A stretch of DNA of 64,000 nt from an uncultured Ectothiorhodospiraceae bacterium (GTDB lineage Bacteria > Pseudomonadota > Gammaproteobacteria > CAYFSA01), in the NCBI GenBank assembly GCA_964345605.1, contig CAYFSA010000001.1, forward strand, positions 14,521 to 78,520, read 5' to 3'. Positions 3,291-60,182 of this stretch are shown piece after piece (the stretch's first letter is position 1; every line of letters starts with the position of its first letter). Position numbers and translations under genes: made by a program. The notes under the pieces were generated by a model. It did no database searches, had not been told where the DNA came from, and worked only from the letters and a program-made list of their open reading frames with translations.

Positions 3291-4232
3291 CTACGCCTCG
3301 TCGTCGATCAAACCGAGCTCGGCAAGGATTTTGCCAGCCCCTTGCGCCAGCAAGTCATCAGCAACCCGATGACCCAGGGCTTCGGCCTCGGCCTGCGGCG
3401 CCCGGCCTTCGGCATGGTGAACGGGCTGGCCGGCGGGATGACCGACCAGGGCCCGCAAATAGAGTTCGCCGCCTTCCAAGGTGGCATAGCCAGCGATAGG
3501 CACCTGGCAGCCACCTTGCAAGCGGCGATTCATCGCCCGCTCGGCGCTGATGCAGTAATAAGTCTCGCTATCATGCAGCGGCGCGATCAAGGTTTCGATC
3601 TCGGGATCATTGCGCCGGCATTCGATCCCCAGCACCCCTTGGCCGATGGCTGGCAAGCTGTCGGCCGGCGAAATACGGTCGGTAATCCGTTCGGCCAGAT
3701 CAGCCCGCTCCAAGCCTGCCGTCGCCAAGACGATGGCGTCATAGACACCCTCGTCCAGCTTGCGCAGGCGGGTATGGATATTGCCTCGCAGATCGATGAC
3801 CTCAAGCCCCGGATAGCGCGCCCGAATCTGGCATTGCCGCCGTAAGCTGGATGAGCCCAGCCGGGCGCCGTCCGGCAGCTCCTGCAGATGCTTATAGGTA
3901 TTGGAAACGAAGGCATCCCGCGGATCATGCCGGGGCAATACCACCGGCAACTGCAATTTTTCGGTGATTTGTACCGGCACATCCTTGAGCGAATGCACGG
4001 CAATATCGGCCTCGCCGTTCAGCAGGCCTTGCTCCAGCTCTTTGACAAACAAGCCTTTGCCACCCACCTTGGCCAAAGGACTGTCGAGGAGCTGATCACC
4101 CTTGGTGGTCATTTTGCATAGCTCGACTTCCAGACCCGGATGCAGGGCCTGCAGACGGGCAGCAACGAATTCAGTCTGCACCACGGCCAACACACTCTGC
4201 CGGGTAGCGATACGCAGGGGACGATCAATCAT
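3291..4232 (-). CDS. hemC: hydroxymethylbilane synthase (porphobilinogen deaminase)
   Basis: 313 aa. [23 protein letters not shown]...[11 protein letters not shown] and the later dipyrromethane cofactor region are characteristic of HemC. Confidence 0.9.
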
Positions 4233-4422
4233 AAGCTTGGGCCTGACTCAAATGCTGAAAAACGGACATGGCGTGCCGCCTGGTGCAGCACGGCTCAGGT
4301 ATCGATCAAACGCCGCAGTATAACCCTCGAGGCCATACTGCGGAACCAGATGAACCGATAACACTAGACAAAAACCAGCCACCTGTCACCGGCGCTTATG
4401 CCATAATGCTGGATAAGCTTGT

Positions 4423-5301
4423 ATGAGCAGGAGATCAATTATCTTGAATAGCCGTGTGGGGTTGCTGATTGTCGTTGCCATGATTTTGGTCTACACAAGC
4501 CATGACCGACCGGCTGTAGCGGCCCCGCCTACCGAGCCGTCTGCCACGACAGAGCTGCTGCCCCCGCATTACCCGCAGGAAAGGGTTTTCGTGGATACCC
4601 AAAAGCTGCCCTGGCGGGCCATTGGCCGGGTCAACATGCTCGGCGGCCGGCGTTACTGCACGGGAATCCTGATTGGGGATCAGTATGCTTTGACCGCAGC
4701 GCATTGCGTGGCCGCGCTGCGCGAGCATCCCCGAGAAATCCACTTCCTCGCCGGTTTTCAACGCGATAACTATCGTGCCCACGCCCAAGCCGAAACCGTC
4801 ATCCTGTCTCCCGCTTACGCCCAAACTGACAGCAAGCGACAGCGGTTTGTCCACGACTGGGCGCTGCTTGAGCTCACCGCCCCTATCGGTCGCGAGATCG
4901 GCCATATTTCCTGGATCCCATTCGGCTTGGCAGACTTCACCAAAATCAAGCACTCAGGCTCGTTCATCGTCGCTGGTTATCGCAGTGATCGGCCTTATGT
5001 GCAAACCGCGGATCAACATTGTCGTATAATTGGCTTCACCGCCACCAGGCGCCTTTTTTATCATGGCTGTCCGCTGCGTACCGGGGATTCCGGCGGGCCA
5101 ATTCTCTGGCAGCAGAACGATGATCGCTATTTGTTGGTGGGTCTGTCGGTCGGCGGACTTATTGAGCCGCGCTCTATATCCCCTATGCAACTCAATACAC
5201 CGAATCTTAAAGTCGGCTATGCCATTCCTCTCGGGCGTCTGCAGACGACGTTTGCTACGCTAGACTTACAGCCAGCAATTATAGATTCCCATAATCATTG
5301 A
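4423..5301 (+). CDS. secreted trypsin-like (S1 family, glutamyl-endopeptidase-like) serine protease
   Basis: N-terminal signal/anchor segment. Catalytic motifs TAAHC (His) and GDSGGP (Ser) are present. Transcribed divergently from hemC. Confidence 0.8.
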   Translation: MSRRSIILNSRVGLLIVVAMILVYTSHDRPAVAAPPTEPSATTELLPPHYPQERVFVDTQKLPWRAIGRVNMLGGRRYCTGILIGDQYALTAAHCVAALREHPREIHFLAGFQRDNYRAHAQAETVILSPAYAQTDSKRQRFVHDWALLELTAPIGREIGHISWIPFGLADFTKIKHSGSFIVAGYRSDRPYVQTADQHCRIIGFTATRRLFYHGCPLRTGDSGGPILWQQNDDRYLLVGLSVGGLIEPRSISPMQLNTPNLKVGYAIPLGRLQTTFATLDLQPAIIDSHNH

Positions 5302-5346: not shown

Positions 5347-7227
5347 ATGTTTAAGTTTTCATCACTGTTGCGCTTTTGCTTAGTGCTGCTGGTTTGCCTG
5401 CTTGGCAGCGGCCAGGCCGGCCTTGCAGACGATACGTCCGCGCTAACCTATCTCAACCAACTGCGCGCGCAGGTCGCGATGCTGCCTTTCAGTCATCACG
5501 AGCAGTTGCAGCAAGCAGCGGCCAATCATGCTCAATATCTCACCTTGAACAATCTTACCGGTCATGACGAGCAAGCCGGCCGGTCGGGATTTACCGGCAC
5601 GGGGCCGGGCGAACGGGCCGTGGCAGTTGGCTACCCGAGCCGGCAGGTTAGCGAGAATATCTCCTATGGCGACAGCGATTATCGCCAATCTGTGGATGGT
5701 TTGATGTCAGCGATCTACCATCGCCACGGCTTTTTGGCTTTTGACCGAGACGAGATTGGCTTTGCCCGCTCAAGCTATCCCGATAACCGCCAGGCCTGGG
5801 TCTACAACATGGGCAATTCTTATGTGCGGGCTTTATGCAGCGGCGATGCTTTCACGGGCACAGGCCGATATTATATTGGGATATGCGAACCGGATATACG
5901 GCTCGCTGCAGCCGTCTATGAACAGGCTTTGGCGCAGCTCCCTGCAGCCAATCCCGAGTTAGTCGTCTGGCCACCGATCAATGGCACTGATATACCCCCA
6001 GCCTTTTTTGAGGAATCTCCTGATCCCCTGCCTGATTTCTCCGTCTCGGGCTATCCAATCTCCGTATTGTTCAATCCGGATGCTGTCACCACCGCCGGGG
6101 TCAGTCGCTTTACCCTCTACCGTCTGCCGGACGAGCACGAACTCGAAAACACGCGTGAACTCAACGAGTTCACCGATCCCAACCAGCGATTTAATAACTT
6201 ACAATACGCTCTGTTTCCTCTGGAACGCTTGGCATGGCATACGCGTTACCGTGTCGAGATCGACTACACCCAGGACGGCATTCCCTATACCAAACAATGG
6301 ACTTTCACCACCCGTGATTTGGGCATACCGGTCCACACTATTACCACGGGTGACACGCTCGAAGTGGTCGCCGGAGGGCGTTTTGCCGTATACATCCGAC
6401 CCAGCGACGCCTACCCAACGTTGTCGGCCGGGGGTGGCATAAGCTGGCGGTATCCCAGGGGGATGACGATCGACAGTGAATTTATCGATAGCAACACGGT
6501 TCAGCTAACCGTTGATGGTGCTGTCGGCGATGCGGCGGTATTTACTTACAATGACAGTTCCTCCTTTACCATTCGCCTGACAGAGCATGCCAATCAAGCT
6601 CCTAGCGCTGATGCGGGCGCTGACCAAGCAGTTACTGCCGGCGAGCTCGTCACCTTAACCGGTACTGGCAGCGATCCTGAGCAAGACCCGCTGACCTATG
6701 AATGGCAACAACTTGGCGAGCAAACGGTTGAAATCGTACCGGATGGCGCCAGCATACAATTCACCGCGCCGGGGGTAGCCACAGCTACGCCGTTCAATTT
6801 TGAATTGACGGTGAGTGATCCGCATGGCGCAAGTGACAGTGACCAAGTCACCCTAACAATCAGCCCGTCTGTCCTGCCTGCGGATATCGATGGCAACGGT
6901 TTGGTTGAGGAGATGGACGCGTTGATGCTCCTGCGCCATTTATTCGGTTTTCGCGGCGTTGCCCTCACTCAAGGCCTTGTCGATAGCGCCAACTGCCGAC
7001 GCTGTGACGCCATGGCCATCACCGCTTATCTCCAGGAGCAGCAAGCACGCTACGATATTGACAATAACGGCCAAGTTACCGCCCTGAGCGATGGCCTTAT
7101 ACTGTTGCGTTATTTGCGCGGTTATGAAGGTAGTGATCTCATTGCACAGGTAATCGATCAACAGGATTGCCGTCGTTGTGATACTGCCTCGGTGCAAACA
7201 TATATCGCTACGGAACTGGTACGTTGA
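5347..7227 (+). CDS. secreted multidomain protein: CAP (SCP/PR-1, YkwD-like) domain + PKD-like domain + two dockerin-like Ca-binding repeats
   Basis: Signal peptide MFKFSSLLRFCLVLLVCLLGSGQA. CAP-type motifs (LNQLRAQ..., HAQYL, SENISYG, HRHG). PKD-like ANQAPSADAGADQAVTAGELVTLTGTGSDPEQDPLTYEWQ. Two C-terminal repeats, DIDGNGLVEEMDALMLLRHL...CRRCD and DIDNNGQVTALSDGLILLRYL...CRRCD. Confidence 0.65.
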   Translation: MFKFSSLLRFCLVLLVCLLGSGQAGLADDTSALTYLNQLRAQVAMLPFSHHEQLQQAAANHAQYLTLNNLTGHDEQAGRSGFTGTGPGERAVAVGYPSRQVSENISYGDSDYRQSVDGLMSAIYHRHGFLAFDRDEIGFARSSYPDNRQAWVYNMGNSYVRALCSGDAFTGTGRYYIGICEPDIRLAAAVYEQALAQLPAANPELVVWPPINGTDIPPAFFEESPDPLPDFSVSGYPISVLFNPDAVTTAGVSRFTLYRLPDEHELENTRELNEFTDPNQRFNNLQYALFPLERLAWHTRYRVEIDYTQDGIPYTKQWTFTTRDLGIPVHTITTGDTLEVVAGGRFAVYIRPSDAYPTLSAGGGISWRYPRGMTIDSEFIDSNTVQLTVDGAVGDAAVFTYNDSSSFTIRLTEHANQAPSADAGADQAVTAGELVTLTGTGSDPEQDPLTYEWQQLGEQTVEIVPDGASIQFTAPGVATATPFNFELTVSDPHGASDSDQVTLTISPSVLPADIDGNGLVEEMDALMLLRHLFGFRGVALTQGLVDSANCRRCDAMAITAYLQEQQARYDIDNNGQVTALSDGLILLRYLRGYEGSDLIAQVIDQQDCRRCDTASVQTYIATELVR

Positions 7228-7314
7228 CTTGTCCAAGCAGCCGCCGCAGGCCCTCAAAGCAGCTATTTTCACCCTGATTAATCGCCACTTCATTTAGGAT
7301 GCGGAATGACAGGG

Positions 7315-8049
7315 CTATAAAGCCCGCACCAGCCGGCGGACTTCGGACGCATGGCGGCGGCTGACCTCAAGCTGCTCGACGATATCCTTTATCTGCACAC
7401 GCAGCCGACCATCGTTGCCGCGCTTGAGACCTGCCAGTGAGGCTATGGTTACCAGGGCATTGCGATGAATACGAATAAACGTCCCCGGGAAATTGGCCTC
7501 GAGCGTTTTCAAGGAATCCTCGATCAGAACTTCCCCGTCTTTATAGCGAACCGTGACGTATTTCTGCTCGGCCTGGCAGTAATACACTTGCTCGATCGGA
7601 ATCAAACGCAAAGCGCCGCGCTCGGTCGCACAAATATACGTATGCGCCTTGCTCGGCGACTGCTCGGCCCGCAAGCCTTCGAGCTGGGCCAGATTCGGGC
7701 GGCTAGCGCTGGTCAGGGCCTGTTCCAGTTCCTGCTGGCGTACGGGCTTGACCAGGTAGCCCATGGCATGCAGGGCAAAGGCCTCCAAGGCATGATCCGA
7801 ATAGGCGGTCACAAAGATGACCGCCGGTGCCGGCCGTAAGCGCAGGAAATATTGGGCGGCCTCCATGCCGTCCATGCCGGGCATGCGGATGTCGAGCAGG
7901 ACGATTTCAGGACGCTCGACTTGGCAATGCTCCAACGCTTCGACCCCATTGGTCGCCAAGGCACAAACCTCAAAGCCCTCGATCGCTTCCACCATGCTTG
8001 CCAGACGCTCCAGCGCTGGCTGCTCGTCATCGACCACAAGCACCTTCAT
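7315..8049 (-). CDS. LytTR-family two-component response regulator (AlgR-like)
   Basis: Receiver domain MKVLVVDDEQPALERL...DIRMPGMDGME plus a C-terminal LytTR DNA-binding domain. Paired with the downstream histidine kinase. The argH-kinase-regulator arrangement mirrors argH-fimS-algR of Pseudomonas. Confidence 0.85.
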   Translation of the reverse strand: MKVLVVDDEQPALERLASMVEAIEGFEVCALATNGVEALEHCQVERPEIVLLDIRMPGMDGMEAAQYFLRLRPAPAVIFVTAYSDHALEAFALHAMGYLVKPVRQQELEQALTSASRPNLAQLEGLRAEQSPSKAHTYICATERGALRLIPIEQVYYCQAEQKYVTVRYKDGEVLIEDSLKTLEANFPGTFIRIHRNALVTIASLAGLKRGNDGRLRVQIKDIVEQLEVSRRHASEVRRLVRAL

Positions 8050-14230: not shown

Positions 14231-14273
14231 AGCTGTGGGTCGATTGAAATCGACCCTACTCCTCGCTCTCGGT
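14199..14273. repeat. hairpin-containing repeat B (GGCGGACTAAAGCCCGCC-CTACTAG-ATGG...GGGTCGATTGAAATCGACCC-TACTCCTCGCTCTCGG); direct copy of repeat A
   Basis: See repeat A. Overlaps the last codons (..TESEE*) of the dynamin-like gene. On the minus strand the first hairpin is followed by TTTATTATTTTTATT, so it doubles as a terminator. Confidence 0.6.
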
Positions 14274-15731
14274 TTGAGCACCAGCCAAGGTGCTCGGGTG
14301 GCTCGTGCCGGAAGGATTGGTAAACTGGTCGTTCAGCCGCTGAACATAGCGATCGGCGGTATCTCGCACAGATTTCAGGATGAGGCGTGAGCGCTTGCTC
14401 CAGCCCCAGGGATTGCGTCGCCACATGGGCCGCCAGAATTCGGTATTCTTGCGGAATGCAGCCACCAGATTGCCGGGCAATTTATCATCCTGCAGGGTAG
14501 CCGCCACTTTGTCCGCCATCAAGTTGCGGAATAGAAAATGAATACCGGCCAGCACCACGACCAGGGCGACCCCTAGGCCGATAGCAAGATTCGGCTGCGA
14601 GCCCAAGCCTTGCACGAAGCCGGCGATCTCCCCAAGGCCCCAGCCATAGTTGATAGCAACCCCACCAAAGACGAGCAAGATCGCCAAGACAGTCAGCCCG
14701 TCACCCGTCAGAGTAAGCTGCCGCCAACGCCGTAAGGCTTGCTGCAAACGCGGCACAACGGCAAATTCAATCTGCTCGCCGATATGGCTTAGCGTACCGA
14801 CGATACGGTAGACACGCTGCACGCCGACATCAGCAATGCGACTGTAAATCAGCTCCATGTCGTGATCACGTTTGCTGCGGAAACGCTCCCGCAGGCTCGC
14901 ATCTTCGATCGGCACCGCTGCCGTATCGCTATAAACGGCATAAAAGCGGCCGGCACTCAAACCATGCTTAGCCAGAGCCCGATGCCAGGCAGCCAGGACA
15001 TCCTCGGCGTTATCCTCGCGGGCAGTCGTGTCGATCTGGTTGAGTACAAACTGGAATTTGCCGAAATCGCCACGGTGATAGACGTTGGCGACCAGATGCT
15101 TAAGGGTATCCTGCATGGCGCCGGGCTCGGGACGGCGGGCATCGAACAGGACCAGCACCAGGTCCGATAAGTCCATGATATAGTCGGTAATACGCAGGGT
15201 CGAATCGCGCTGCTCATCAGCATCAAAGCCCGGCGAGTCGATAATGATCTTGCCACGCAAATGCTCGGCCCTGCAGGTCTTCATCTGGGTGTAGGTGTCG
15301 ACCCGCATGCCCTCACCCGGTGCGACATGCTCAATTTCGTCGGCAATTTGATAAAACGGAAAGCGCGGATCAGAATCCAGGGCCCGGCCAGGCAATTCGT
15401 GCACCTGATCATCCTGGCTAAAACAAATAACAGTGAATTTGTCATCCACCGCTTGGTTACCCGTATCCTGCAGTTTCTTGCCGAGGAAATCATTGATGAA
15501 CGTGGATTTGCCTGCCGAATAAGTACCTAGGACGGTAATGAGCGGCCACCAGGAAATTTTCGTGGCAAAGGACTCGTCAGTTTCCAACAGGCCGAGCTTG
15601 TAGGCAACCCGATCAAGCTCACGAAATTCTTTGGCTGCCTCGACCAGGATGGGATTTTCCAATTGCAGATGCTCGGTCAGGGCATCGAGTCTGAGCTGTA
15701 ACACGCTATTGGCTTGTGACATGCTATTCAC
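14256..15731 (-). CDS. dynamin-family large GTPase with C-terminal membrane hairpin (bacterial dynamin-like protein, LeoB-like)
   Basis: G1 GTYSAGKST, G3 DSPG and G4 NQID motifs. Two hydrophobic helices near residues 340-400. Its start overlaps the stop of the upstream gene by 4 nt. Confidence 0.75.
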   Translation of the reverse strand: MNSMSQANSVLQLRLDALTEHLQLENPILVEAAKEFRELDRVAYKLGLLETDESFATKISWWPLITVLGTYSAGKSTFINDFLGKKLQDTGNQAVDDKFTVICFSQDDQVHELPGRALDSDPRFPFYQIADEIEHVAPGEGMRVDTYTQMKTCRAEHLRGKIIIDSPGFDADEQRDSTLRITDYIMDLSDLVLVLFDARRPEPGAMQDTLKHLVANVYHRGDFGKFQFVLNQIDTTAREDNAEDVLAAWHRALAKHGLSAGRFYAVYSDTAAVPIEDASLRERFRSKRDHDMELIYSRIADVGVQRVYRIVGTLSHIGEQIEFAVVPRLQQALRRWRQLTLTGDGLTVLAILLVFGGVAINYGWGLGEIAGFVQGLGSQPNLAIGLGVALVVVLAGIHFLFRNLMADKVAATLQDDKLPGNLVAAFRKNTEFWRPMWRRNPWGWSKRSRLILKSVRDTADRYVQRLNDQFTNPSGTSHPSTLAGAQTESEE

Positions 15732-16528
15732 CTTGAGTTCGTTATAGTTGGCGAGACACCGTTGCGCGGCTGCGCCGGCCAGGAATCCGCTTGAGGTTGC
15801 TGATTGGCGTTTTGTTCAGCTGCTTGATAGGCCTGTTGCAAAGCCGACATCACCGGCGAAATTGGCACCACCCCAGCTGCCTCGAGCGCGCGTACCAATT
15901 CCCCCGCTTCCCAGCCACGGCCCTGAGCGACCAACCGCGTGGCCGCTTCGGCGTAGGTCTCGGCGGCGTTGTCATAGGCCCCCATAAGGGTATAAAAATT
16001 GCCAAGTTCGCCGACCACATCCGGATCATGCGCCAAGCGCTGCGCCAAGGTTACATAAGCACGCTCCGCGCATTGATGCCGTCCCTGCCAAACGCAAGTC
16101 CGAGCCTGGCGCCACAAACGCCGGATAGCCTCATTTTTTTGGCTAGGCCGTGGCGTCTGTGGGCGCTCAGTGTACGCGGCTGTTCCCATTGGCTGAGACG
16201 TCCGTTGCTGCTCCTGGCGAATCGCCTCTTGCTCGCGCCATTGCTGCCAAGCTTCGCGGCTTGCAGCCTCAGCCGCGGCTTGCGGGGGCTCGGGCTGCCC
16301 TGCTTGCGTCCCGGCGGGCCGCTGCAGCGATGCATCCGAGCCTGGCTCGGACGCCGGCACCTCTGCTTCGTCGCCTTCCACGGCGCGAATCTGATGCAAA
16401 TTGCGCGGGGCCTGGGCTTGAACCGGGTCGGCAAGCGCGAGCAGACCAAACGCCATAACCCCTACACAAACTGCGATACTGTTAGACTGCCCTGAAGTCA
16501 CAGGAAAGTTGTAAGCAATGGATCGCAT
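15728..16528 (-). CDS. secreted protein with Q/A/E-rich coiled-coil region and C-terminal TPR-like helical domain; co-operonic partner of the dynamin-like GTPase
   Basis: Start chosen at the ATG (16528) that gives a signal peptide, MRSIAY...IAVCVGVMAFGLLALADPVQA. The track's longer ORF begins with GTG at 16600. Translationally coupled to the GTPase gene. Confidence 0.5.
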   Translation of the reverse strand: MRSIAYNFPVTSGQSNSIAVCVGVMAFGLLALADPVQAQAPRNLHQIRAVEGDEAEVPASEPGSDASLQRPAGTQAGQPEPPQAAAEAASREAWQQWREQEAIRQEQQRTSQPMGTAAYTERPQTPRPSQKNEAIRRLWRQARTCVWQGRHQCAERAYVTLAQRLAHDPDVVGELGNFYTLMGAYDNAAETYAEAATRLVAQGRGWEAGELVRALEAAGVVPISPVMSALQQAYQAAEQNANQQPQADSWPAQPRNGVSPTITNSR

Positions 16529-16753
16529 CGGGCGAGCTAAGCGCCGCCTCACGCCGCTCAAGCTAAGCCCATGCCCCCATTGCAAGCCGAACCGTCGCAC
16601 AGCGAGTGTGCTCGGCCAGCGTCAACAGTGGCAAGGCCGCCTGAATGGACTGCACTGTGCATCCAACATGGCAAACAATGCATCATTAGACATCAATCAC
16701 TTGGCCCAACAAAAAATAGCCATTTAAGCCGCTACTACCGCACAACCGACAGT

Positions 16754-25337: not shown

Positions 25338-26213
25338 ATGAAAGACCTGAAAACCCGTCTTGCTGAACATGGCTTTATCGCCAATACCGATTATGACTAC
25401 CCGATCAAATGCCTGTTAAGCGCGCGGCTATCCCATCTGCGCTGCCTGAACATCGAAGGCAACGGTGGCCGCCGCAAAACCGCCTTTGCTCATGCCCTGG
25501 CCAAGGCGCTCGATATCGAGCATGTGCTGTATTATGAATTTCCCCATACCCAACCAGCCCCCGAGCCCGTGCGCATTCCCCCGAACCTGCAGGCCCAGGA
25601 CGCTGATTACCCCGGCGAACCCCCGGTCGAGGCCTTCGTGCAGATCGTCGGTGAGGCCTGTGCGCTGAGCGAGGGCGAACCGACCGCACTGATCCTGGAT
25701 CAGCTCCAGCGCGCCCCGTTTCATCGCCATCTGCAGATCAGCGAATTCATCCAGCGCTGCGAATGGAGCGTCGCGGAAATGCAGCTGCGCGCCAACCGCC
25801 AAAACCTTCATGTTTTCCTCATTGCCGAGGAACCGCTATACCACTCCCTGCAGCAATTGAGTTTCAATCTGTGGCTCGCCGACCAAGCTCAATCAGGGCT
25901 TCACCCAACGCCCGCCGAGCTCGGTCTGAACCCGGCGGCCGAGCCCGTCCTCGGCGGTCTGGCACGGCTTTTCGCTCACTTGGAGGTCACGCCCACTTGG
26001 TATGAATATCAACGCCTCATGCACGATATCCAGTTCAATATCCAAAGCCTTGACAATCTCAAGACCTCCATCTATGGCTGGATCGAAGGCGTGCAGCGGG
26101 CGTCGCTGTATGCCGCCAAGACCCATGAAATCCTGGAAACCGAACTGGCGCCGTTGCTGAACCGCTATCTGGGCACTCAGCTACTCGACGCACCACAGTC
26201 TCAGCGCCCATAA
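25338..26213 (+). CDS. conserved hypothetical protein (291 aa) with degenerate P-loop-like motif
   Basis: NIEGNGGRRKTAFAHALAKAL resembles a degraded Walker A. No other recognisable motifs. Confidence 0.45.
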   Translation: MKDLKTRLAEHGFIANTDYDYPIKCLLSARLSHLRCLNIEGNGGRRKTAFAHALAKALDIEHVLYYEFPHTQPAPEPVRIPPNLQAQDADYPGEPPVEAFVQIVGEACALSEGEPTALILDQLQRAPFHRHLQISEFIQRCEWSVAEMQLRANRQNLHVFLIAEEPLYHSLQQLSFNLWLADQAQSGLHPTPAELGLNPAAEPVLGGLARLFAHLEVTPTWYEYQRLMHDIQFNIQSLDNLKTSIYGWIEGVQRASLYAAKTHEILETELAPLLNRYLGTQLLDAPQSQRP

Positions 26214-26545: not shown

Positions 26546-27361
26546 TTGACCGTATCCTTACCTGAGTTCCAGCGGGAACTGACCGAAACGATTCGTTATC
26601 AGGCCTACCTGCGCTATTGCGCGCGGGGACGTGAGTCCAATCACGCCGAGGACGATTGGTTTGGCGCCGAAGTCGCTATCATTTCTCAGTTAAGCGGGGT
26701 CCTCGAGGAATGGCAGCCGGCTTCGGCACCTGACCTGACCGAAACCTTTTACCAAGCCTCCACCGAGCAGGCCCGGCAGGCCTCGCATCAAGCCAGTGTG
26801 GCACTCGCGCGCATGTTAGCCAAGCCACGACCTTTTGGCACCCGACATTGGACGCGCAAGCTGACGCCCCTGCGTCTGACCATCGCCTTACCGCCGTTAC
26901 TATGGGTCACCACTTTACTGACTTGGCCCGACAACCCGGCGATGCACCTGTCTGGCCAACGCGCCGATCCGCCGCTAGCAGCCGCCATGGCAGCCAACGG
27001 CATGCCTCAGCCAGCCAGCAACACCCAGCCAGCCATGCCGGCTTACCATGCCCATACCGACTCGCTCAGCGCACCGCGCTACACCATTCAGCTCCTGGCG
27101 GTGCGCGATCCGCGGGGCATACCGGCGTTTATTGCTGCAAACAGGCTGGATCGCCAGCAACTGGAACTCATCCAGAGCCACCGCAGCCCACATGGCTGGT
27201 ATCTCTTATTGTATGGCACCTTTGATGGCTACCAGGCTGCCCAGCAAGCACTGCGAACCCTGCCGCCAGCCTTATCGACCAACAGCCCCTTCATTCGCGA
27301 GCGCAGCGCCCTCAGCGCAACCGTCGCCTGGCCCGATCAACCTCAGGATTCACTCGGCTAA
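26546..27361 (+). CDS. membrane protein with N-terminal DUF2934-like motif and C-terminal SPOR (peptidoglycan-binding) domain
   Basis: IRYQAYLRYCARGRESNHAEDDWFGAEVAI fits the DUF2934 consensus. A TM segment follows. A C-terminal SPOR-like region runs YTIQLLAVRD...GWYLLLYGTFDGYQAAQQAL. Start codon non-ATG or uncertain. Confidence 0.55.
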   Translation: MTVSLPEFQRELTETIRYQAYLRYCARGRESNHAEDDWFGAEVAIISQLSGVLEEWQPASAPDLTETFYQASTEQARQASHQASVALARMLAKPRPFGTRHWTRKLTPLRLTIALPPLLWVTTLLTWPDNPAMHLSGQRADPPLAAAMAANGMPQPASNTQPAMPAYHAHTDSLSAPRYTIQLLAVRDPRGIPAFIAANRLDRQQLELIQSHRSPHGWYLLLYGTFDGYQAAQQALRTLPPALSTNSPFIRERSALSATVAWPDQPQDSLG

Positions 27362-30093: not shown

Positions 30094-30933
30094 TCAATTG
30101 CCGGGCAGCCACCGCTCGAACGAGGCAAAGCTCTGTCCCACCCCCTCGGGGGCCGCCGGGTCATAGTAAAGACTGCGCAGGCGCATCGTGGTGGGCGGCG
30201 CGAGCAGGCTGCCTTCCACCAAACTGCGATAATCGGTGCCGCCCAGCAGCCGATGCACAACGGTGAGATACAGTCGGTCCAGGCACTGATCGGCGAGCAG
30301 CATGTGCATGATTTCCGGGCCGGTCACCGAGTAAATACAGCGGTAACCACGCGTCCCGAGCCTGTCGATCAGGGTTGCACCAGTGACTCGCTCGCCCGGC
30401 TCCTGGATGACAGTAAAGCCTTGGGCTTGTATCTCGGCGACACGCGCGGCCTGAGCCCGAGCACTGGTGAAAAACACGACGTCACGCTGGCCATCGCGCA
30501 TTTCCGCGGGAATCGGACAGTTCAAGCTGGCACTCACCACCGCCAAGGCGGGATAGGCTGACAGCCCCTGATGCACCCGCCAGGCCCGCAGATCGGCAAA
30601 ACTCGGATCGTCGTAAACCGCAATGATCTCCTGCGCCGTCCCCGCAGCACGTTCGCGCAAGTGCCGGCCACTGGTGATGAGCACATCCGCCTGAGCCGCC
30701 AGTTCCTGAAACAAGCGCCAGTCACGCGGATTGGCAATGGCATGGGGCACGGTCTGAGCGCCGTCCGCCCCTGCGGTCACTGAGATCCGCCCGTCCAGAC
30801 TGCAGACATAATTGGTGTAGACAAAGGGGCGTTCGTTTGCACCCGACTGTTGCAGGTCTTCCTGCAAATACAATCGGTCAAGCGCGACTTCCGCAGTCGG
30901 CTGCGGCAACAGACGCAACAAGGGCTCGGTCAT
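30094..30933 (-). CDS. RibD C-terminal domain / dihydrofolate-reductase-fold reductase family protein
   Basis: 279 aa with the RibD_C-like pattern (..YVCSLDGRIS..., ..DVLITSGRHL...). Last gene of a four-gene operon. Confidence 0.65.
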   Translation of the reverse strand: MTEPLLRLLPQPTAEVALDRLYLQEDLQQSGANERPFVYTNYVCSLDGRISVTAGADGAQTVPHAIANPRDWRLFQELAAQADVLITSGRHLRERAAGTAQEIIAVYDDPSFADLRAWRVHQGLSAYPALAVVSASLNCPIPAEMRDGQRDVVFFTSARAQAARVAEIQAQGFTVIQEPGERVTGATLIDRLGTRGYRCIYSVTGPEIMHMLLADQCLDRLYLTVVHRLLGGTDYRSLVEGSLLAPPTTMRLRSLYYDPAAPEGVGQSFASFERWLPGN

Positions 30934-30935
30934 GG

Positions 30936-31268
30936 TCAGTCGTACAACACCTTGGCCATCTCATCGAAGACCTGGGTCACCGAGCCACGCTCATTTTCCA
31001 GTAAACAGACCAAATCACCCAAAACACACACGGACATATCCCGCCCCCGCACGCTCCAGCCACGCGGCGGAGCCCAACCTTGCTGTTGGGTGAACATCGA
31101 CAGCTGATCGGCATTGGCCTGAGTCAGCCGCTGATAATTCTTGGCAAAGCGACACAATTTATGCAGCACCACTTCCTCGAGAAACCCGTAGCCCTCGCCG
31201 CAGCTGCCGTCATCACGAAACTGCACTACCGCCTGGACCCCGTCGAGGGCGAGCAATCGCTTGATCAT
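30936..31268 (-). CDS. small Cys-motif protein, paralogue 1 of a tandem trio (DUF2173-like, uncharacterised)
   Basis: 110 aa. Shares LxGV..V.F, GW and CVLGxLxCxxxN motifs with the two genes upstream. Confidence 0.5.
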   Translation of the reverse strand: MIKRLLALDGVQAVVQFRDDGSCGEGYGFLEEVVLHKLCRFAKNYQRLTQANADQLSMFTQQQGWAPPRGWSVRGRDMSVCVLGDLVCLLENERGSVTQVFDEMAKVLYD

Positions 31269-31284
31269 GGCCGCATCTCCCGCC

Positions 31285-31629
31285 TCACTGCGCTAAGCCG
31301 GCATAGGCCGCTTCAAAATCGGCCAGGTCGTTACGCATGACAAGACCTGTCGAACCCTGGATCGCCACCGACCAGTCGGTGCCGATCAGCGAAAAACCGG
31401 TTACCGGATAAAAACCTTCCATCTGGGTCAAGGTCTCCCAGCCCCGCGCCTGCATGGTCCCGATCGCCCGATTGGCCACGCAGACATGGGCGAGCAGGTC
31501 CAGGACGCGGGCATCGAGCTGTGCCGTCTGACTCGCGTCAATGCGGTGGTCAGTGAGCTCGCCCCGGTCAGAAAACTCGAATACGGCAAGCACGCCGGGC
31601 AGCTCCATCAAGCGATCGAATCTAGCCAT
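31285..31629 (-). CDS. small protein, paralogue 2 of the tandem trio (Cys-less variant)
   Basis: 114 aa. MELPGVLAVFEF..., GWETL and WSVAIQGSTGLVMRN align with paralogues 1 and 3. Confidence 0.5.
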   Translation of the reverse strand: MARFDRLMELPGVLAVFEFSDRGELTDHRIDASQTAQLDARVLDLLAHVCVANRAIGTMQARGWETLTQMEGFYPVTGFSLIGTDWSVAIQGSTGLVMRNDLADFEAAYAGLAQ

Positions 31630-32047
31630 GCATCATCTCCGCTGAACCCGTTGAAGAAAAAGACATGCCCGCGCCGGCATTGGCATCCGGCTCGGTGCGG
31701 TCGGCGACGAACCGCTGCATCACCGCCAGCACATCGTTGATCGGCGCCTGACCATTGGCCATGAAACAAAACAGCCGGCCCAGCACACAAACGGTATAGC
31801 GCGGCCCGGTGACGGTCCAACCCATGACCGGCAAGAAGCCGCAATGAGAATGAGCGCACAGCCCCTGCAACATCTCGCCTTCCATGGTAACGCCCAGGGT
31901 GGTCGCCCGGCACATGATAGTGGCCAGGCGCGCCATTTCGGTATCCAGTTCCCCCTGATAATCACAACTATCGCCATGGCCGGCATACTCGCCGGCAACC
32001 ATGACCCCCGGTAACTTCATCAAATCGGCAATGGCACCCATGCGCAC
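31622..32047 (-). CDS. small Cys-rich protein, paralogue 3 of the tandem trio
   Basis: 141 aa. MKLPGVMVAGEY, GWTVTG and YTVCVLGRLFCFMAN. Additional Cys residues (CDY, CRAT, CAHSHC). Confidence 0.5.
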   Translation of the reverse strand: MRMGAIADLMKLPGVMVAGEYAGHGDSCDYQGELDTEMARLATIMCRATTLGVTMEGEMLQGLCAHSHCGFLPVMGWTVTGPRYTVCVLGRLFCFMANGQAPINDVLAVMQRFVADRTEPDANAGAGMSFSSTGSAEMMHG

Positions 32048-32182
32048 CTCCTCAGGTGAGATAATGTCGGGGTGGGCCTATCTCGGCAACCGCTGCCTCG
32101 GCAACCGCTGCAAGCCAATCTCAGGCGCATAGTAACGCGCCGCGATAACCGGCAAAAGCCAAAAACACTAAGGATAAACACC

Positions 32183-32701
32183 ATGTCGACATCTAGCCGT
32201 TTAGCCGTCGCTCAAGCACGCATTCCCGCGAGCTTCATGCGCCGCCTCGCCGCCATGCTGTACGATGGCCTGCTGATCCTGGCCATCCTCTTTCTGGCGG
32301 TGCTGATCGTGATCTACCCCACCGGCGGCGCCGTGCAGCATCCCTTGTTCAGCCTTTATCCCCTGGCCATCGGTTTTTTGTTTTTTGGTGGCTTTTGGGT
32401 GCTACGTGGCCAAACCCTGGGCATGAAAACCTGGCAGCTCTGGCTTCTAACCCCCCAAGGCCAGCGGATCAACTGGCGGCAAGCCCTAACCCGTTATCTC
32501 CTGGCCTTGGCGAGCTGGGGCTCACTGCTCATTGCCCTGAGCTGGGCAAATCTGCACAACCCGCCTGTCTGGCTGGTCCTCCTGGCCTGCCTACCGGGTG
32601 GCATGGCCATCGCCTGGGCCGGTTTCGATGGCGAGCGCAGCACACTCTATGACCGCTTATCCGGGACCCGGTTAGTGCGAATCCCGGCCGGGCAACGCTA
32701 A
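32183..32701 (+). CDS. RDD-family membrane protein
   Basis: ..FMRRLAAMLYDGLLILAILFLAV is a typical RDD N-terminus, with three predicted TM segments. SD AAGGA upstream of the ATG at 32183. Confidence 0.6.
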   Translation: MSTSSRLAVAQARIPASFMRRLAAMLYDGLLILAILFLAVLIVIYPTGGAVQHPLFSLYPLAIGFLFFGGFWVLRGQTLGMKTWQLWLLTPQGQRINWRQALTRYLLALASWGSLLIALSWANLHNPPVWLVLLACLPGGMAIAWAGFDGERSTLYDRLSGTRLVRIPAGQR

Positions 32702-32862: not shown

Positions 32863-33582
32863 CTAAGCAGATTGGCGAAACCGCATGTTAGCGTTACCGG
32901 TAGTAATCAGATCGCCATCCTGCAGGGCCTTGCCCTGGGCGCGCAGCGGACTGCCGTTGAGGGTCGGGACCTGCCGGCTGTTGCCGGTATCGATAAGCAT
33001 GGCAAAGAACTGGCTGCCCCGTTTGGAGATCGCAACCACGGCTTCCCCAGGGTTGCCGAGGGTCGTGACCCCGCGCTGCAGGGGAATGGTAGTGCCCGCC
33101 TGCGTCCCGCTTTCCACCCACAATGAACCCAACGGTGCCGCCGGCGAGTCGGCCTGGACAACCGTGGCACTGGCTGCCGACGCCGGTGTAGCGGGTTTGC
33201 TCGTGGCGGCTTGCACCCGGTCGGGTGGCATCGCTGCGGCTTGCGGTTTGGGCGGCACAGCAGTCCGCTCCTCCAGCGCGCCGCGCTGCGTGACCGGACA
33301 CATGAAATGCAGCAGCTCACGGCCGATCGTGATCCGGTCGCCATGGCGCAACACCCTTTTCTTGACAGGCGCCTGATTGACGTAGGTGCCGTTGGTGCTA
33401 TCGAGATCCTCGAGAAACACATCATTGAGCAGACGAATAAACCGAGCATGGTGCTGACTGACCGCCCGATTAGGAAACTGCAGATGATTGCTGGCGGCCC
33501 GGCCGATCACCACGCAGTCCTGTTCGATGGTAAATTCGTGGGTTTGTTGCGCTGCATTTTGCCACACTAGCTTCGGTGCCAT
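32863..33582 (-). CDS. FHA-domain protein (N-terminal FHA plus second degenerate FHA-like domain)
   Basis: N-terminal FHA signature, VIGRAASNHLQF...VSQHHARF...NGTYVN...GDRITIG. A Pro/Ala-rich linker follows. The C-terminal FHA-like segment runs TTLGNPGEAVVAIS...LNGSPL...GDLITTG. Confidence 0.8.
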   Translation of the reverse strand: MAPKLVWQNAAQQTHEFTIEQDCVVIGRAASNHLQFPNRAVSQHHARFIRLLNDVFLEDLDSTNGTYVNQAPVKKRVLRHGDRITIGRELLHFMCPVTQRGALEERTAVPPKPQAAAMPPDRVQAATSKPATPASAASATVVQADSPAAPLGSLWVESGTQAGTTIPLQRGVTTLGNPGEAVVAISKRGSQFFAMLIDTGNSRQVPTLNGSPLRAQGKALQDGDLITTGNANMRFRQSA

Positions 33583-33600
33583 TGTCCAATAATCCCGGCT

Positions 33601-34419
33601 TCAGTTTACCCTAGCGCGCTTGAACAGACGGGCCCACCAGGGCCCATGGCGGCGGGCCTGCCGCGGCGCCGCGCGAGCCAGCATAACGGAAACATTATCC
33701 TTGCCGCCACGGTCATTGGCGCGGGCAACCAAAGCCTCGGCGGCCTGCGCCAAATTGTTTGCATGCTTGCTCAACAAAGTGGCGATCTCGGCATCCGTCA
33801 GCATGTCGTACAGGCCATCGGTGCACAAGAGAAACAAATCATGGGGTAAGGCCAGGGTATCGCGCACATCAATGGCAACACTCGGCCCGACCCCGAGGGC
33901 CCGGGTAATGATATGACCCGGCGTGTGCACCTCCTGGGTGCGGCCAGCGTGAAGACCGCGATCTATGACCTCCTGGCGCACCGTATGATCCTGGGTCAGA
34001 CAGGTGAAATCGCCGCCGCGATAGCGATAAAGCCGGGAATCGCCCACATAGGCAAAATGAATATGGCCATCGCGCAAGATGCAGGTAACAACCGTCGTTC
34101 CCATGCCGAACTGTTCCGGATTGCGCTGAGCTTGGGCATAAATGCGGCGATTGGCCTGAACGATGGCCTGGCGCATGGCAAGCCCGAGCTCACTGCAGCC
34201 GGTGGCGGGGTCAATGCCATGGGAAGCAGGCAGCTCGTCAATTTGTTCGAGTTGCTCGAGGATGGTATCGACCGCGATGCGGCTAGCGATTTCACCTGCG
34301 TGATGGCCGCCCATACCATCGGCAACGACCAACAAATCAATTTGCTCGGCTTGGCCGATGCAGTCCTCGTTTTGCGAGCGCACCTTGCCGACATCCGATA
34401 AACCAGCCCACTCAATCAT
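33601..34419 (-). CDS. PP2C-family Ser/Thr protein phosphatase
   Basis: Metal-binding motifs VADGMGGHHAGEIAS and LLCTDGLYD. Lies 18 nt downstream of the FHA gene on the same strand. Confidence 0.85.
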   Translation of the reverse strand: MIEWAGLSDVGKVRSQNEDCIGQAEQIDLLVVADGMGGHHAGEIASRIAVDTILEQLEQIDELPASHGIDPATGCSELGLAMRQAIVQANRRIYAQAQRNPEQFGMGTTVVTCILRDGHIHFAYVGDSRLYRYRGGDFTCLTQDHTVRQEVIDRGLHAGRTQEVHTPGHIITRALGVGPSVAIDVRDTLALPHDLFLLCTDGLYDMLTDAEIATLLSKHANNLAQAAEALVARANDRGGKDNVSVMLARAAPRQARRHGPWWARLFKRARVN

Positions 34420-36090: not shown

Positions 36091-36807
36091 TTGCGACAAA
36101 TCGTCCTGGATACCGAAACAACCGGCCTGGAGCCCAGTGAAGGCCATCGCATTCTGGAAATCGGCTGCGTCGAGCTGCAAGATCGCCGACTTACCGGCAA
36201 CGACTTCCATTGTTATCTCAACCCTGAACGCGAGGTCGATGAGGGAGCCTTGGCGGTGCACGGGCTCGATCAAGCCCTGTTGGCCGAAAAGCCGCGCTTC
36301 GCCGAAGTCGTCGGGGATTTCATGGCGTATCTGCAAGGCGCCGACGAGCTGCTGATACACAATGCGCCCTTCGATGTCGGCTTTATCGACCAGGAGCTCG
36401 CGCGGGTCGGCGGGCAGTGGTCGCATCTGGCCGCCTATCATCACATCGTCGATACCCTGGTGCTCGCACGACGCAAACGTCCGGGCCAACGCAACAGCTT
36501 AGATGTCCTGTGCAAGCACTACCAAGTCGACAATTCTGGGCGCGCATTGCACGGCGCCCTGCTGGACGCGCGTTTGTTGGCAGAAGTGTATCTCGCGCTC
36601 ACCGGCGGCCAGAGCAGCCTGGCCCTGGGGCACGCCGATGCTGGCGAAGCCGGCGCACGCCCCCGCCCGGTCGCCGCCGAGCGGTCCCGGCTGCCGGTCA
36701 TCGCGGCCAGTGCTGCGGAGCTGCAGGCGCATGCCAAGGTCCTGGAAGTCATTGACAAGGCGAGCGGCGGACGTTGCCTGTGGTCCGCAATGCAGGCTAG
36801 CAATTAA
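36091..36807 (+). CDS. dnaQ: DNA polymerase III epsilon subunit (3'-5' proofreading exonuclease)
   Basis: Exo motifs IVLDTETTGL, HNAPFDVGF and HGALLDA. Non-ATG (TTG) start. Confidence 0.9.
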   Translation: MRQIVLDTETTGLEPSEGHRILEIGCVELQDRRLTGNDFHCYLNPEREVDEGALAVHGLDQALLAEKPRFAEVVGDFMAYLQGADELLIHNAPFDVGFIDQELARVGGQWSHLAAYHHIVDTLVLARRKRPGQRNSLDVLCKHYQVDNSGRALHGALLDARLLAEVYLALTGGQSSLALGHADAGEAGARPRPVAAERSRLPVIAASAAELQAHAKVLEVIDKASGGRCLWSAMQASN

Positions 36808-36845: not shown

Positions 36846-37183
36846 TCGGTCGAAACCGACCCAACCAGTTGCCGTAGGGCGGGTTTCAACCCACCCCACC
36901 ACAGCCAAATGCCGGCACCGCTTGGTCGAAACCGACCCAATCCAGTTGCCGTAGGGCGGGTTTCAACCCGCCCCACCGCGGCCAAATGCCGGCACCGCTT
37001 GGTCGAAACCGACCCAACCAGTTGCCGTAGGGCGGGTTTCAACCCGCCCCACCGCAGCCAAATGCCGGCACCGCTCGGTCGAAACCGACCCAATCCAGTT
37101 GCCGTAGGGCGGGTTTCAACCCGCCCCGCCGCAGCCAAATGCCGGCACCGGCTCGGTTGCAAGCAACCGAGCCGACCGATCAG
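36846..37183. repeat. tandem array of four ~77-bp repeat units, each with two nested hairpins, ending in a strong 11-bp-stem hairpin
   Basis: Units start at 36846, 36924, 37001 and 37077, with periods of 78, 77 and 76 nt and >90% identity. Each unit has GGTCGAAACCGACC and GGGCGGGTTTCAACCCGCCC palindromes. The terminal hairpin GGCTCGGTTGCAAGCAACCGAGCC (about 37151..37174) abuts the smpB stop. Confidence 0.85.
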
Positions 37184-55352: not shown

Positions 55353-57539
55353 TTAGCCACCTGCACATACTTCGCAAAACGGTGTACCTGCCTGGGCGGC
55401 ATTGGCCAAAGTTTGTGCCTGTTGCCGCTGATACCCCGCAACTTGAATTGGGTCCAGGCTACGCGGGCTAGTGCTGCGCTCAGCCGCTTGGGTCGTACTT
55501 AGGTCACCTGCTTGCGAAGTAACTGCCGTTTGCGGCTCCTGCGGCGCTATCGGTGCATCGGGAGAGCAACCGGCGCCGCTACCCGCGCTGCCGCCGCTAT
55601 TGATTTTTACCATCGGCCCTGAGATATCAACGCCCAGCGGCCCTACTGTGACGAAGGAACTGCCCGCCTTGATGGTCAGTTGCATGCCCGCTTCGATAAC
55701 GACGTTCATGCCGCCCTTCACATGCACGTTCATGCCGGCATCGACGGCATAATTCATGCCGATCTTATCTTGTCGATCCATACCCGTTTTCGAGGACAAG
55801 CTGCCCTCAATCTTGCTATTGTGATCACCCCCGGCCTTTTGATGTTTGTCACCATCGACCTGTTCGTATTGATCTTCTTTGATTATCAAATGCTTGTGCC
55901 TGGTGACTTGTTCTAATTGATCGTGCGCCACGAGCAGATGCCGATCTTGGCCAACCCATTCCTTGGTGGTGTTTTGGATCCGTATATCCTGGTCTTTTTG
56001 GCCATGAATAAAAATCTCTTCACTGTCTTTTTTATCTTCAAAGCGAATCTCATTAAAACCGCCTCCGCCCTTTGAACTGTTGGTCTTCCAGGTCGTTTTG
56101 GTCTTTTCATCTGGCAAGGGATAAGGCGGCATGGCTTCAGCGTTATATACACGACCGGTGACGATGGGCTTATCGGGATCGCCTTCCAAAAAACTGACAA
56201 TCACTTCCTGGCCGATACGCGGCAACATGATAGCCCCCCAGCCTTTCCCGGCCCAGTTTTGCGACACCCGGATCCAGCAGGAGCTGTTCTCATCTTTCAT
56301 CCCGTAACGATCCCAGTGAAACTGTACTTTCACCCGGCCGTATTGATCCGTCCAGACTTCTTCGCCCGGCGGACCCACCACGGTCGCAGTCTGCGGACCC
56401 TGAATCATAGGCTTGGTTGTCGTTGCCTCAGGCCGATAACTCTCCCTACTGTCAATGGCTGTAAAGGACGTCTTATAATGAGGCTCACCGGCCTCTACGC
56501 CAGCCTGACTCGTTTCAAATGCTTGCGACCCCATCTCATGTCGAGCACTTACCACCAAATATTCACGGTTTTGGGTTTGCCGCGGATGCTCCGTCAGGGT
56601 AAACAAATACCCTACCGCCAAACCACCCACATCGCCCTCTCCCGATACCACTTCGAAATTGGCATGTAACGCTTCGATACGGCGGCGCGCATACTGTTCA
56701 CCATCGGCACGCTCACTGTACAAGCCCGGATAGTCATACATTTCAAAATCCGCCTTTTCATGGTGGCGGATAAATGGGGCGTTGGCGGTTAAATCCGCCT
56801 TGGGTTTGATGAAATAATAGTCATTGAGCACCACCGAACCCGGCAGTACTTGTTTTCGGCAATCGATGTGACTGATATGTTCTTGATGAATAGGGCGATC
56901 AGAGGGACTGCAAGGGATCTCCGAGTAATTCGGGAACGCATCATGGGCACTGTAACTATCGGCTAAAACCAGGATATTCCGGCCATTTTCATGTTTGATG
57001 AAATAATAGATCCCTTCGGCTTCCAATAGGCGGCTCACGAAGGCAAAATCAGTTTCGCGATACTGCACACAGTATTCCCATTGACGATACTCGTTCGTCA
57101 GCGCATTTTCATAATCGGTGAAGCCATGCTCCCGAAACAATTCCATGACGATGGTGGGAATGTTTTTAGCCTGATAAATGCGGCAATCGGTTGTGCGCGT
57201 CAGGAACCACAACCATGGGCGCAAGACCAGTTCGTACGCCGCATACTGCCCCCGCTCGCCGATATAGCGGCATTCGCTGACAAAACCATTGAAATACCGC
57301 TCGCCACCCCGTTCTAACCGATAGCGTAGCGTTACATTCGTGCCAAGCAATGCCTCGAGTTCAATGTCGATGTCGCTGCTCAGGGCCTCGAGTCGAAATT
57401 CGGACAGCCGGCCCAACGCTTCCTGACCCATCACTCGCTGCAACAACAAGACATCTTCACCGAGCACTGTATTGACAGCCATGGATCGATAAGTCTGGGT
57501 CGCACCGGTTTTGCGCAGCTCTGCCATCGCCCTACTCAC
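55353..57539 (-). CDS. vgrG: type VI secretion system tip protein VgrG with ~80-aa C-terminal extension
   Basis: gp27-like and gp5-like (OB-fold) regions, repeated GMN-V-GG beta-helix motifs, then a G/S-rich linker and a unique tail (..PFCEVCAGG). Confidence 0.95.
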   Translation of the reverse strand: MSRAMAELRKTGATQTYRSMAVNTVLGEDVLLLQRVMGQEALGRLSEFRLEALSSDIDIELEALLGTNVTLRYRLERGGERYFNGFVSECRYIGERGQYAAYELVLRPWLWFLTRTTDCRIYQAKNIPTIVMELFREHGFTDYENALTNEYRQWEYCVQYRETDFAFVSRLLEAEGIYYFIKHENGRNILVLADSYSAHDAFPNYSEIPCSPSDRPIHQEHISHIDCRKQVLPGSVVLNDYYFIKPKADLTANAPFIRHHEKADFEMYDYPGLYSERADGEQYARRRIEALHANFEVVSGEGDVGGLAVGYLFTLTEHPRQTQNREYLVVSARHEMGSQAFETSQAGVEAGEPHYKTSFTAIDSRESYRPEATTTKPMIQGPQTATVVGPPGEEVWTDQYGRVKVQFHWDRYGMKDENSSCWIRVSQNWAGKGWGAIMLPRIGQEVIVSFLEGDPDKPIVTGRVYNAEAMPPYPLPDEKTKTTWKTNSSKGGGGFNEIRFEDKKDSEEIFIHGQKDQDIRIQNTTKEWVGQDRHLLVAHDQLEQVTRHKHLIIKEDQYEQVDGDKHQKAGGDHNSKIEGSLSSKTGMDRQDKIGMNYAVDAGMNVHVKGGMNVVIEAGMQLTIKAGSSFVTVGPLGVDISGPMVKINSGGSAGSGAGCSPDAPIAPQEPQTAVTSQAGDLSTTQAAERSTSPRSLDPIQVAGYQRQQAQTLANAAQAGTPFCEVCAGG

Positions 57540-57695
57540 TCATCGTTGTCTGAATATTTGCATAATTTTCGCAGCCAATGCACACCCACCCCCGTGGCAG
57601 GGACGCGACCAAGGTCGCGACAACCTATGCAATGGCTCCCATCACCGCCGCCCCCGTTTCAGCCTTCGCTCAGCGCGGCTTGGCCACAGCCCAGC

Positions 57696-59237: not shown

Positions 59238-59325
59238 AAAAATCGTTACAATTTCGTCATGCCGATTTTAGGCCCGGTCTAACCGGCCGGCTCGGATCAT
59301 GCCGCGACAGACAAACAGGAGTGCC

Positions 59326-60093: not shown

Positions 60094-60182
60094 TGTTCAG
60101 TCTCATGGTTGCTGGCAGAAAACCCTGCAGCCCTGGCAGTTGAGCCGGGCCAGATACCCGAACAGCCATGTTGCCAGGCCGG

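Follow-up and report, generated by a model that had tools for sequence, protein, structure and literature searches.

Roadblock/LC7 domains, an ancient class of adaptor module, are familiar chiefly as partners of small GTPases in MglB, Ragulator and the conservons. Proteins of this fold are obligate dimers from which adaptor or regulatory platforms are built; they do not act as enzymes, and the classical members pair with a small GTPase. The DUF2173 family (PF09941/COG4831) is held in the databases as one family of unknown function. The present analysis concerns three adjacent DUF2173 genes (the trio) and the reductase-like gene that follows them in a 64,000-nucleotide stretch of DNA (the window) from an uncultured Ectothiorhodospiraceae bacterium (contig CAYFSA010000001.1, positions 14,521 to 78,520). 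An earlier note on this DNA had called the family uncharacterised, which agrees with the literature: published work is essentially absent, and a full-text search for DUF2173, PF09941 and COG4831 returned passing mentions only. On balance, and with some reserve, we read the trio as a Roadblock-fold hetero-oligomeric platform, probably located at the inner membrane, and the reductase gene as a local insertion.

The four open reading frames (ORFs) listed in the earlier note were all found on the minus strand. The first (31622-32047) encodes 141 amino acids (aa) when read mechanically from GTG 32047, as had been described. The more likely start is ATG 32041, which gives a protein of 139 aa (31622-32041), because GGAGG lies 5 nucleotides (nt) upstream of it; gene callers chose the same ATG on the source contig, a JGI metagenome contig of 167 kb. 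This gene, termed type C, is followed by type B (31285-31629, 114 aa), type A (30936-31268, 110 aa) and the gene for a 279-aa RibD_C/DHFR-fold reductase-like protein (30094-30933). Types C and B overlap by 8 nt (ATGGCTAG) and types B and A are 16 nt apart, as stated before; only 2 nt, and not the 3 counted earlier, separate type A from the reductase gene. Terminator-like sites occur at the background level only, as judged by a scan. The spacing supports the proposal of a tightly coupled operon of three paralogues.

Paralogy of the three small proteins is borne out by two kinds of comparison. Pairwise BLASTP gave E-values of 8e-10, 4e-10 and 2e-8 at 26-36% identity (24-28% over the full length), and each protein matches PF09941 from end to end (profile positions 2-105 of 106) with 106.7, 107.2 and 107.3 bits and E-values of 9.3e-31 for type C, 6.8e-31 for type B and 6e-31 for type A. 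With a gathering score of 26.1 bits for this profile, the DUF2173 assignment, which had been offered tentatively and without verification, proves right, and all three are full-length members. The family is small; a profile search recovered 217 proteins at E ≤ 1e-3 among 1.84 billion cluster representatives. Multiple copies are usual wherever the gene context was read or the domains were scanned.

The three genes form a conserved cassette. One genome per species, 185,579 species in all, was scanned with type-B signature motifs, which yielded loci in 229 species; the counts given here for trio loci cover the best 80 of these 229. All three types occur in the order C-B-A on one strand in 78 of the 80 loci. 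One of the remaining two lies at a contig end, and type A was not detected in the other. Three orthologous types can thus be resolved where the databases hold one family: type C (typically ~118 aa, 139 aa in the window; signature SIMCRAT...VCxxxNxFCF), type B (~112 aa, 114 aa in the window; HVCVAN...TMQARGWE) and type A (~110 aa, as in the window; FRDDG...ADQLSMF...SVCSVGNLVC). Type B is the most conserved of the three, with a median identity of 57% to its orthologues. Over the 78 complete loci the median gap is 44.5 nt from type C to type B and 9 nt from type B to type A, the latter ranging from -8 to +25 nt. The genes downstream of the trio vary (pcnB-folK in ~25 loci, purL in eight, and many others), and they usually begin more than 40 nt beyond it. 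Because order and spacing are kept while the downstream genes change, the trio is a self-contained three-gene operon, a conserved accessory cassette that is patchily distributed within one clade.

The hosts of these 80 loci are almost entirely sulfur-oxidising Gammaproteobacteria, among them Thiohalobacter, Thiogranum, Thioalkalivibrio denitrificans, Sedimenticola, Thiohalophilus, Thiobacillus, Ectothiorhodospiraceae and many metagenome-assembled genomes (MAGs), and the fixed C-B-A operon is limited to this gammaproteobacterial clade. The usual context runs from holC-pepA, divergent to lptF-lptG, through a gene for an RDD-family membrane protein and the trio to pcnB-folK-panBC. The genes lptFG, pepA, holC, pcnB and purL were considered as functional partners and rejected, as they represent housekeeping synteny that is found with or without the trio. 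The window has no lptFG, pepA, holC or pcnB in its 64 kb, yet the pair of RDD gene and trio is kept.

Each trio protein is predicted to be a single domain of the Roadblock/LC7/MglB fold. The AlphaFold2 model of type A, built from a 31-sequence alignment, has a predicted local distance difference test score (pLDDT) of 94.6 and a predicted template modelling score (pTM) of 0.84, with an alpha-beta-beta-alpha-beta-beta-beta-alpha topology. The model of type C (pLDDT 83.5) has the same topology and a C-terminal tail (residues 117-139) that is predicted to be disordered, with pLDDT below 50. When the type A model was searched against the PDB with Foldseek, the top 50 matches were all Roadblock-fold proteins, including dynein LC7, MglB, Streptomyces CvnB, Ragulator/MP1-p14 and Asgard roadblock proteins, and the predicted models contain the sandwich that is superposable on the solved members of this fold. 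The fold assignment as such is not new, since JGI already labels relatives of these proteins 'roadblock/LC7 domain-containing protein'. Within the superfamily DUF2173 differs by its conserved cysteines in alpha2, beta4 and beta5 and by the neighbours that recur beside it, either an RDD membrane protein or the SCP2 domain. The encoding of several paralogues together recalls MglB/MglC and the LAMTOR subunits and, by that analogy, suggests heteromeric pairing. Co-assembly of the three DUF2173 proteins is plausible, and the trio is proposed to work most like the small pairing Roadblock domains of MglB/MglC, CvnB and LAMTOR.

DUF2173 proteins outside the trio show a related arrangement. An Aquificota and hot-spring module encodes a DUF2173 protein of 113 aa, a second of 108-111 aa and an SCP2 protein of 126 aa, and was found in two flanking contexts (6644-7775 in loci L087 and L088; 4643-5764 in locus L176). 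SCP2 is a domain that binds lipid or a hydrophobic ligand. A single protein of 380 aa is a DUF2173-DUF2173-SCP2 fusion; its SCP2 portion shares 48% identity with the SCP2 protein next to the Aquificota pair. Two-domain DUF2173 fusions were also found. Within each Aquificota pair, and likewise within the 380-aa fusion, the type-B profile gives the highest score for the leading unit, and the type C or A profile for the one behind it. These sequences point to an ancestral heterodimer in which one subunit was B-like and the other C/A-like. The gammaproteobacterial trio would then be this ancestral pair, retained as the tightly coupled types B and A, with an extra C/A-type copy upstream. This separate module of B-like, C/A-like and SCP2 proteins, like the C-B-A operon, goes beyond the present annotation of PF09941/COG4831. 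A homologue search found no SCP2 in the window or in the trio loci. Some other members of the family are solitary among unrelated neighbours, and some carry signal peptides.

The cysteine motifs quoted in the earlier note are present, namely MSVCVLGDLVCLLEN in the 110-aa protein, YTVCVLGRLFCFMAN in the 139/141-aa protein and the Cys-less WSVAIQGSTGLVMRN in the 114-aa protein. Conservation was counted over about 80 orthologues per type (81 for type C). In type A, C81 and C88 are conserved in 95% and 94% of orthologues, and in type C the figures are 99% for C44, 89% for C67, 100% for C85 and 95% for C92, so that the C-x6-C pair is 94-100% conserved in these two types. Type B has a single conserved cysteine, C50 (79%), which aligns with C44 of type C; at the C-x6-C positions it has Ala/Val, then Val or Leu, instead. 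The models place the paired cysteines as cross-strand neighbours on beta4 and beta5, at positions matched across the hairpin and inside an alternating hydrophobic stripe (S/V-C-V and L-C-V). Plain packing of the core fits these predicted positions as well as ligand binding does, and a cysteine-lined internal pocket also fits them.

In the earlier note the RibD_C reductase and the three paralogues had been read as likely members of one stoichiometric complex, with the paired cysteines as a metal or cofactor site and a redox role of the pterin/flavin type. The fourth ORF does encode a RibD_C protein, as had been stated (PF01872 over residues 36-254; 5e-15; 56.3 bits against a cut-off of 24.1). 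Its best solved relatives, at ~1e-5, are an archaeal pyrimidine reductase (6p8c) of the Rib7 type and Mycobacterium tuberculosis Rv2671, with which it shares the RibD_C domain. It lacks the deaminase domain of RibD and belongs to a subfamily of ~276-aa proteins with ~50% identity in Chloroflexota and other groups. The protein stays far below every cut-off of the NCBIfam equivalogs for RibD and pyrimidine reductase (TIGR00227, TIGR01508 and PRK14059), the best scores being 57.7 against 150.15, 47 against 274 and 40.6 against 186.45. The four genes do not make up an operon of the RibD pathway.

The earlier note had named a trio with no conserved linkage to a RibD_C gene in other genomes as evidence against a functional unit, and such a lack of linkage is what the survey shows. 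By tblastn, a reductase homologue is present in one of the 80 trio loci, that of the closest relative, an Ectothiorhodospiraceae MAG in which the reductase is 63% identical, starts 65 nt after the trio and is followed by other downstream genes. Conversely, among five contexts of reductase homologues that were read, the same 63%-identical one is the only one with DUF2173 neighbours, and none stands beside the homologues of 57%, 54% and, for two of the Chloroflexota type, ~50% identity. More than 2,000 proteins belong to this subfamily, many of which come from taxa other than the trio-bearing ones. The reductase gene is thus a lineage-specific addition at the 3' end of the operon and not a conserved partner, given its presence in one of 80 trio loci and the single DUF2173 context among five.

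For the proposed complex speak the 2-nt spacing of type A and the reductase gene, which no terminator-like site separates, the recurrence of the four-gene arrangement in the closest relative in front of other downstream genes, and the high conservation of C-x6-C in types A and C together with two further conserved cysteines in type C. Against it stand the neighbourhood counts, the wide occurrence of the subfamily, for example in Chloroflexota, with no DUF2173 neighbour seen, the hydrophobic residues of type B at the paired positions and the core-like placement of the pair in the beta4/beta5 stripe; in addition, we know of no redox or cofactor chemistry for the Roadblock fold. The model of a reductase complex is largely refuted and we regard it as very improbable. 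Its striking part, a redox system of Cys proteins and reductase, does not survive the neighbourhood survey. In this lineage the reductase gene is probably co-transcribed with the trio and may be co-expressed locally. A reading that joins the reductase to the Cys proteins describes a lineage-specific juxtaposition and is unfit for propagation in annotation.

Upstream of the 54%-identical reductase homologue (locus L093), an SCP2-like ORF that is 30% identical to the DUF2173-linked SCP2 (4004-4396) and a gene for a GYD-domain protein (4586-4876) were observed. In locus L087 a GYD gene is likewise found, ~2 kb away from the DUF2173 pair of Aquificota, so that the same three families are linked twice, probably by coincidence.

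Another explanation of the cysteines turns on the lifestyle of the hosts. DUF2173 might serve a thiol or ligand role in sulfur oxidation, in which a cysteine pocket between alpha2 and the sheet carries a persulfide, a metal or a hydrophobic ligand for SCP2 or RDD. The family, small as it is with its 217 cluster representatives, is concentrated in sulfur and hydrogen oxidisers (Thiohalobacter, Thiogranum, Thioalkalivibrio, Sedimenticola, Thiobacillus, Aquificota and Sulfolobales), and the conserved cysteines in alpha2, beta4 and beta5 and the adjacency and fusion to SCP2 are in keeping with such a role. In support, and as the only published functional data, a gene labelled 'DUF2173' is reported to be induced 99-fold and 32-fold by elemental sulfur in two Sulfolobaceae species (PMC11323534). 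The product of that gene is described as a multi-pass membrane protein, unlike the soluble trio proteins of ~110 aa (PMC11323534); it is given no identifier in the supplements of the study, which hold no DUF2173 entry, and the gene is not traceable there. The taxon bias may also be mere phylogeny, sox, dsr and hdr genes were not seen among the conserved neighbour clusters or in the gene tables read, and the cysteine positions are hydrophobic in type B. With this evidence on its two sides, a thiol or ligand role is unlikely.

Elements of the platform and of the ligand role can be combined. DUF2173 would then be a GTPase-free Roadblock lineage in which heteromers of type B with type A or C carry a hydrophobic or sulfur-containing ligand in a conserved, cysteine-lined pocket between alpha2 and the sheet and pass it to or from a membrane partner. 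The partners named would be SCP2 in Aquificota, RDD in Gammaproteobacteria and, locally, the RibD_C reductase. Taken with these partners as a whole, the combination is a speculative one to which we give little credence. If true, it would describe a new module of chemolithoautotrophs for handling small molecules or lipids, not a signalling scaffold.

Upstream of the trio in the window lies, on the plus strand, the gene for a 172-aa RDD-family small inner-membrane protein (32183-32701, from the start chosen by the gene caller), which matches PF06271 with 68.6 bits against a gathering score of 24.1 (8.7e-19). The protein carries the motifs RLxAxxYD, GGQTLGM and WHDR, and its hydropathy profile shows three hydrophobic stretches, one of them long enough for two spans. 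An RDD gene is divergent from and adjacent to the trio in 68 of the 80 loci, or 68 of the 75 with enough flank, five of the 12 exceptions having less than 500 bp of upstream sequence. The earlier view that nothing in the neighbourhood explains the trio was wrong to this extent, since RDD recurs in 68 of the 75 informative loci; the link itself is ambiguous. In the literature on RDD proteins, one Halobacillus member has been claimed to be a Na+/H+ antiporter, and an intramembrane binding site has been remarked on.

The region of 141 nt between the type C and RDD genes (32042-32182), the sequence of which was read, presumably holds the promoters of both. A scan of this region with the sigma-70 consensus found no site, and a k-mer search over 78 orthologous upstream regions found none common to most of them, the top 9-mer occurring in 17 of the 78. 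A direct 15-nt repeat, GCAGCGGTTGCCGAG twice in the minus-strand reading, was observed at 32082-32111; it may be a site for a regulator or a simple duplication.

In the mechanism that we propose for the trio, the subunits would assemble with each other through the usual Roadblock dimer interface, which in this superfamily involves the beta3 edge strand and helix alpha2. The type-B subunit would pair with type A or type C, giving a small cytoplasmic hetero-oligomer, and this non-enzymatic platform would bind to a further component or regulate it, probably at the inner membrane. Placement at the inner membrane is suggested because RDD is transcribed divergently from the trio and because a DUF2173 pair is coupled to SCP2 in Aquificota and in the fusion protein. 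We infer hetero-oligomerisation and action at the membrane, and likewise any role of RDD and the biological process that is served.

A number of results weigh against this platform. None of the trio proteins matches Pfam Robl_LC7 (PF03259) at E ≤ 0.1, and phmmer with a single protein and hmmsearch with the family profile recovered from the PDB sequences only LpoB and DMC1, at chance level. Because neither search gave a true match, sequence similarity to Robl_LC7 or to solved members of the superfamily is undetectable and membership is a prediction from the modelled fold. Hetero-oligomerisation is in turn suggested by analogy with that fold and by the tandem or fused copies. The linked small GTPase that defines the MglB and CvnB modules is also missing: no GTPase-like cluster was seen among the conserved neighbours of the 80 trio loci (8-kb flanks requested), nor was a conserved cluster resembling a histidine-kinase-like sensor or DUF742, and no small Ras-like GTPase appears in the ±10-kb gene table of the window or in the other DUF2173 contexts read.

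The same facts bear on another explanation, in which the trio would be an MglB-like Roadblock platform of the GTPase-activating or guanine-nucleotide-exchange (GAP/GEF) type for a GTPase, Ras-like or otherwise, whose gene lies at some other place in the genome. The closest structural matches are CvnB, MglB, MglC, LAMTOR and the Rag C-terminal domains, and regulation of GTPases by multi-Roadblock assemblies is the best-documented role of the fold (PMC4719450, PMC13343842, PMC10933270). The window also contains a gene for a dynamin-family GTPase (14256-15731, minus strand; Pfam Dynamin_N, 8e-14), at a distance of ~15 kb from the trio. That distance tells against a connection, as do the lack of a conserved GTPase-like cluster around the trio and in the other DUF2173 contexts and the lack of a Robl_LC7 match, and regulation of a GTPase seems improbable. 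The dynamin-family gene is the only GTPase noticed in the window and is preceded by an overlapping ORF of 290 aa (15728-16600, minus strand).

Further points against the proposed platform concern RDD and the reductase. Seven trio loci have no RDD neighbour and carry valS or other genes in its place. When metagenome contigs were scanned with an RDD alignment, 55 loci with enough flank were obtained, of which 15 have the trio and 40 do not. Trio presence on a neighbour-joining tree of RDD requires ~11 changes, against 34 for shuffled labels, and no RDD column separates trio-bearing from trio-less loci, the largest difference in frequency being 0.52. The adjacency could thus be an inherited position, the footprint of the site at which the cassette inserted. 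As for the reductase, the 2-nt gap and the retention of the gene in the closest relative, with other genes downstream, leave room for a local functional tie.

Trio-less RDD orthologues were observed in the metagenome loci at the same junction, between lptG-lptF-pepA-holC and pcnB-folK. RDD does not need the trio, since 40 of the 55 RDD loci are trio-less at that junction, and the distribution suggests several insertions of the trio at one particular intergenic site, or several losses from it. RDD as a dedicated partner of the trio was not upheld, given its co-occurrence with the trio in only 15 of 55 loci and the lack of a discriminating residue. A functional link between RDD and the trio is possible, if somewhat doubtful.

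The remaining features of the window lie apart from the trio. The RDD, FHA and PP2C neighbours named in the earlier note are all present, and a BolA gene is a further neighbour. Immediately beyond the RDD gene are genes for an FHA-domain protein and a PP2C phosphatase (32863-34419, minus strand), a pair that the other surveyed genomes do not show beside RDD or the trio. The PP2C protein has a weak PADLOC match (candidate PDC-M21C, 6e-10); the defence models of PADLOC-DB v2 gave no match for the trio, the reductase or RDD. A second small BolA-like gene stands between two conserved plus-strand ORFs of 291 aa (25338-26213) and 271 aa (26546-27361). Neither ORF has a Pfam family in the gene tables, and scanning the 291-aa ORF directly against Pfam gave no match either. 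Next to a dnaQ-like gene (36091-36807), in the interval before the following gene, lies a tandem array (36848-37150) of four copies of a 77-nt GC-rich unit with 96% matches; the array produces repeated ORFs on both strands that are spurious. Part of a type VI secretion cluster is also present (55353-62942, minus strand) and encodes VgrG (55353-57539), a protein with TPR and methyltransferase parts (57696-59237) and a ClpV/ClpB-like double AAA ATPase (60183-62942).

As far as the literature search extends, neither the fixed C-B-A cassette nor the module of a DUF2173 pair with SCP2 appears to have been described. The trio is experimentally approachable, as two of its hosts, Thiohalobacter thiocyanaticus (strain Hrh1) and Thioalkalivibrio denitrificans (strain ALJD), are in culture. 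Hundreds of sulfur-oxidising Gammaproteobacteria retain a fixed operon of three Roadblock paralogues with no linked GTPase. This suggests that the fold has a use not yet described, at which the independent adjacency and fusion to SCP2 in other phyla also hint.

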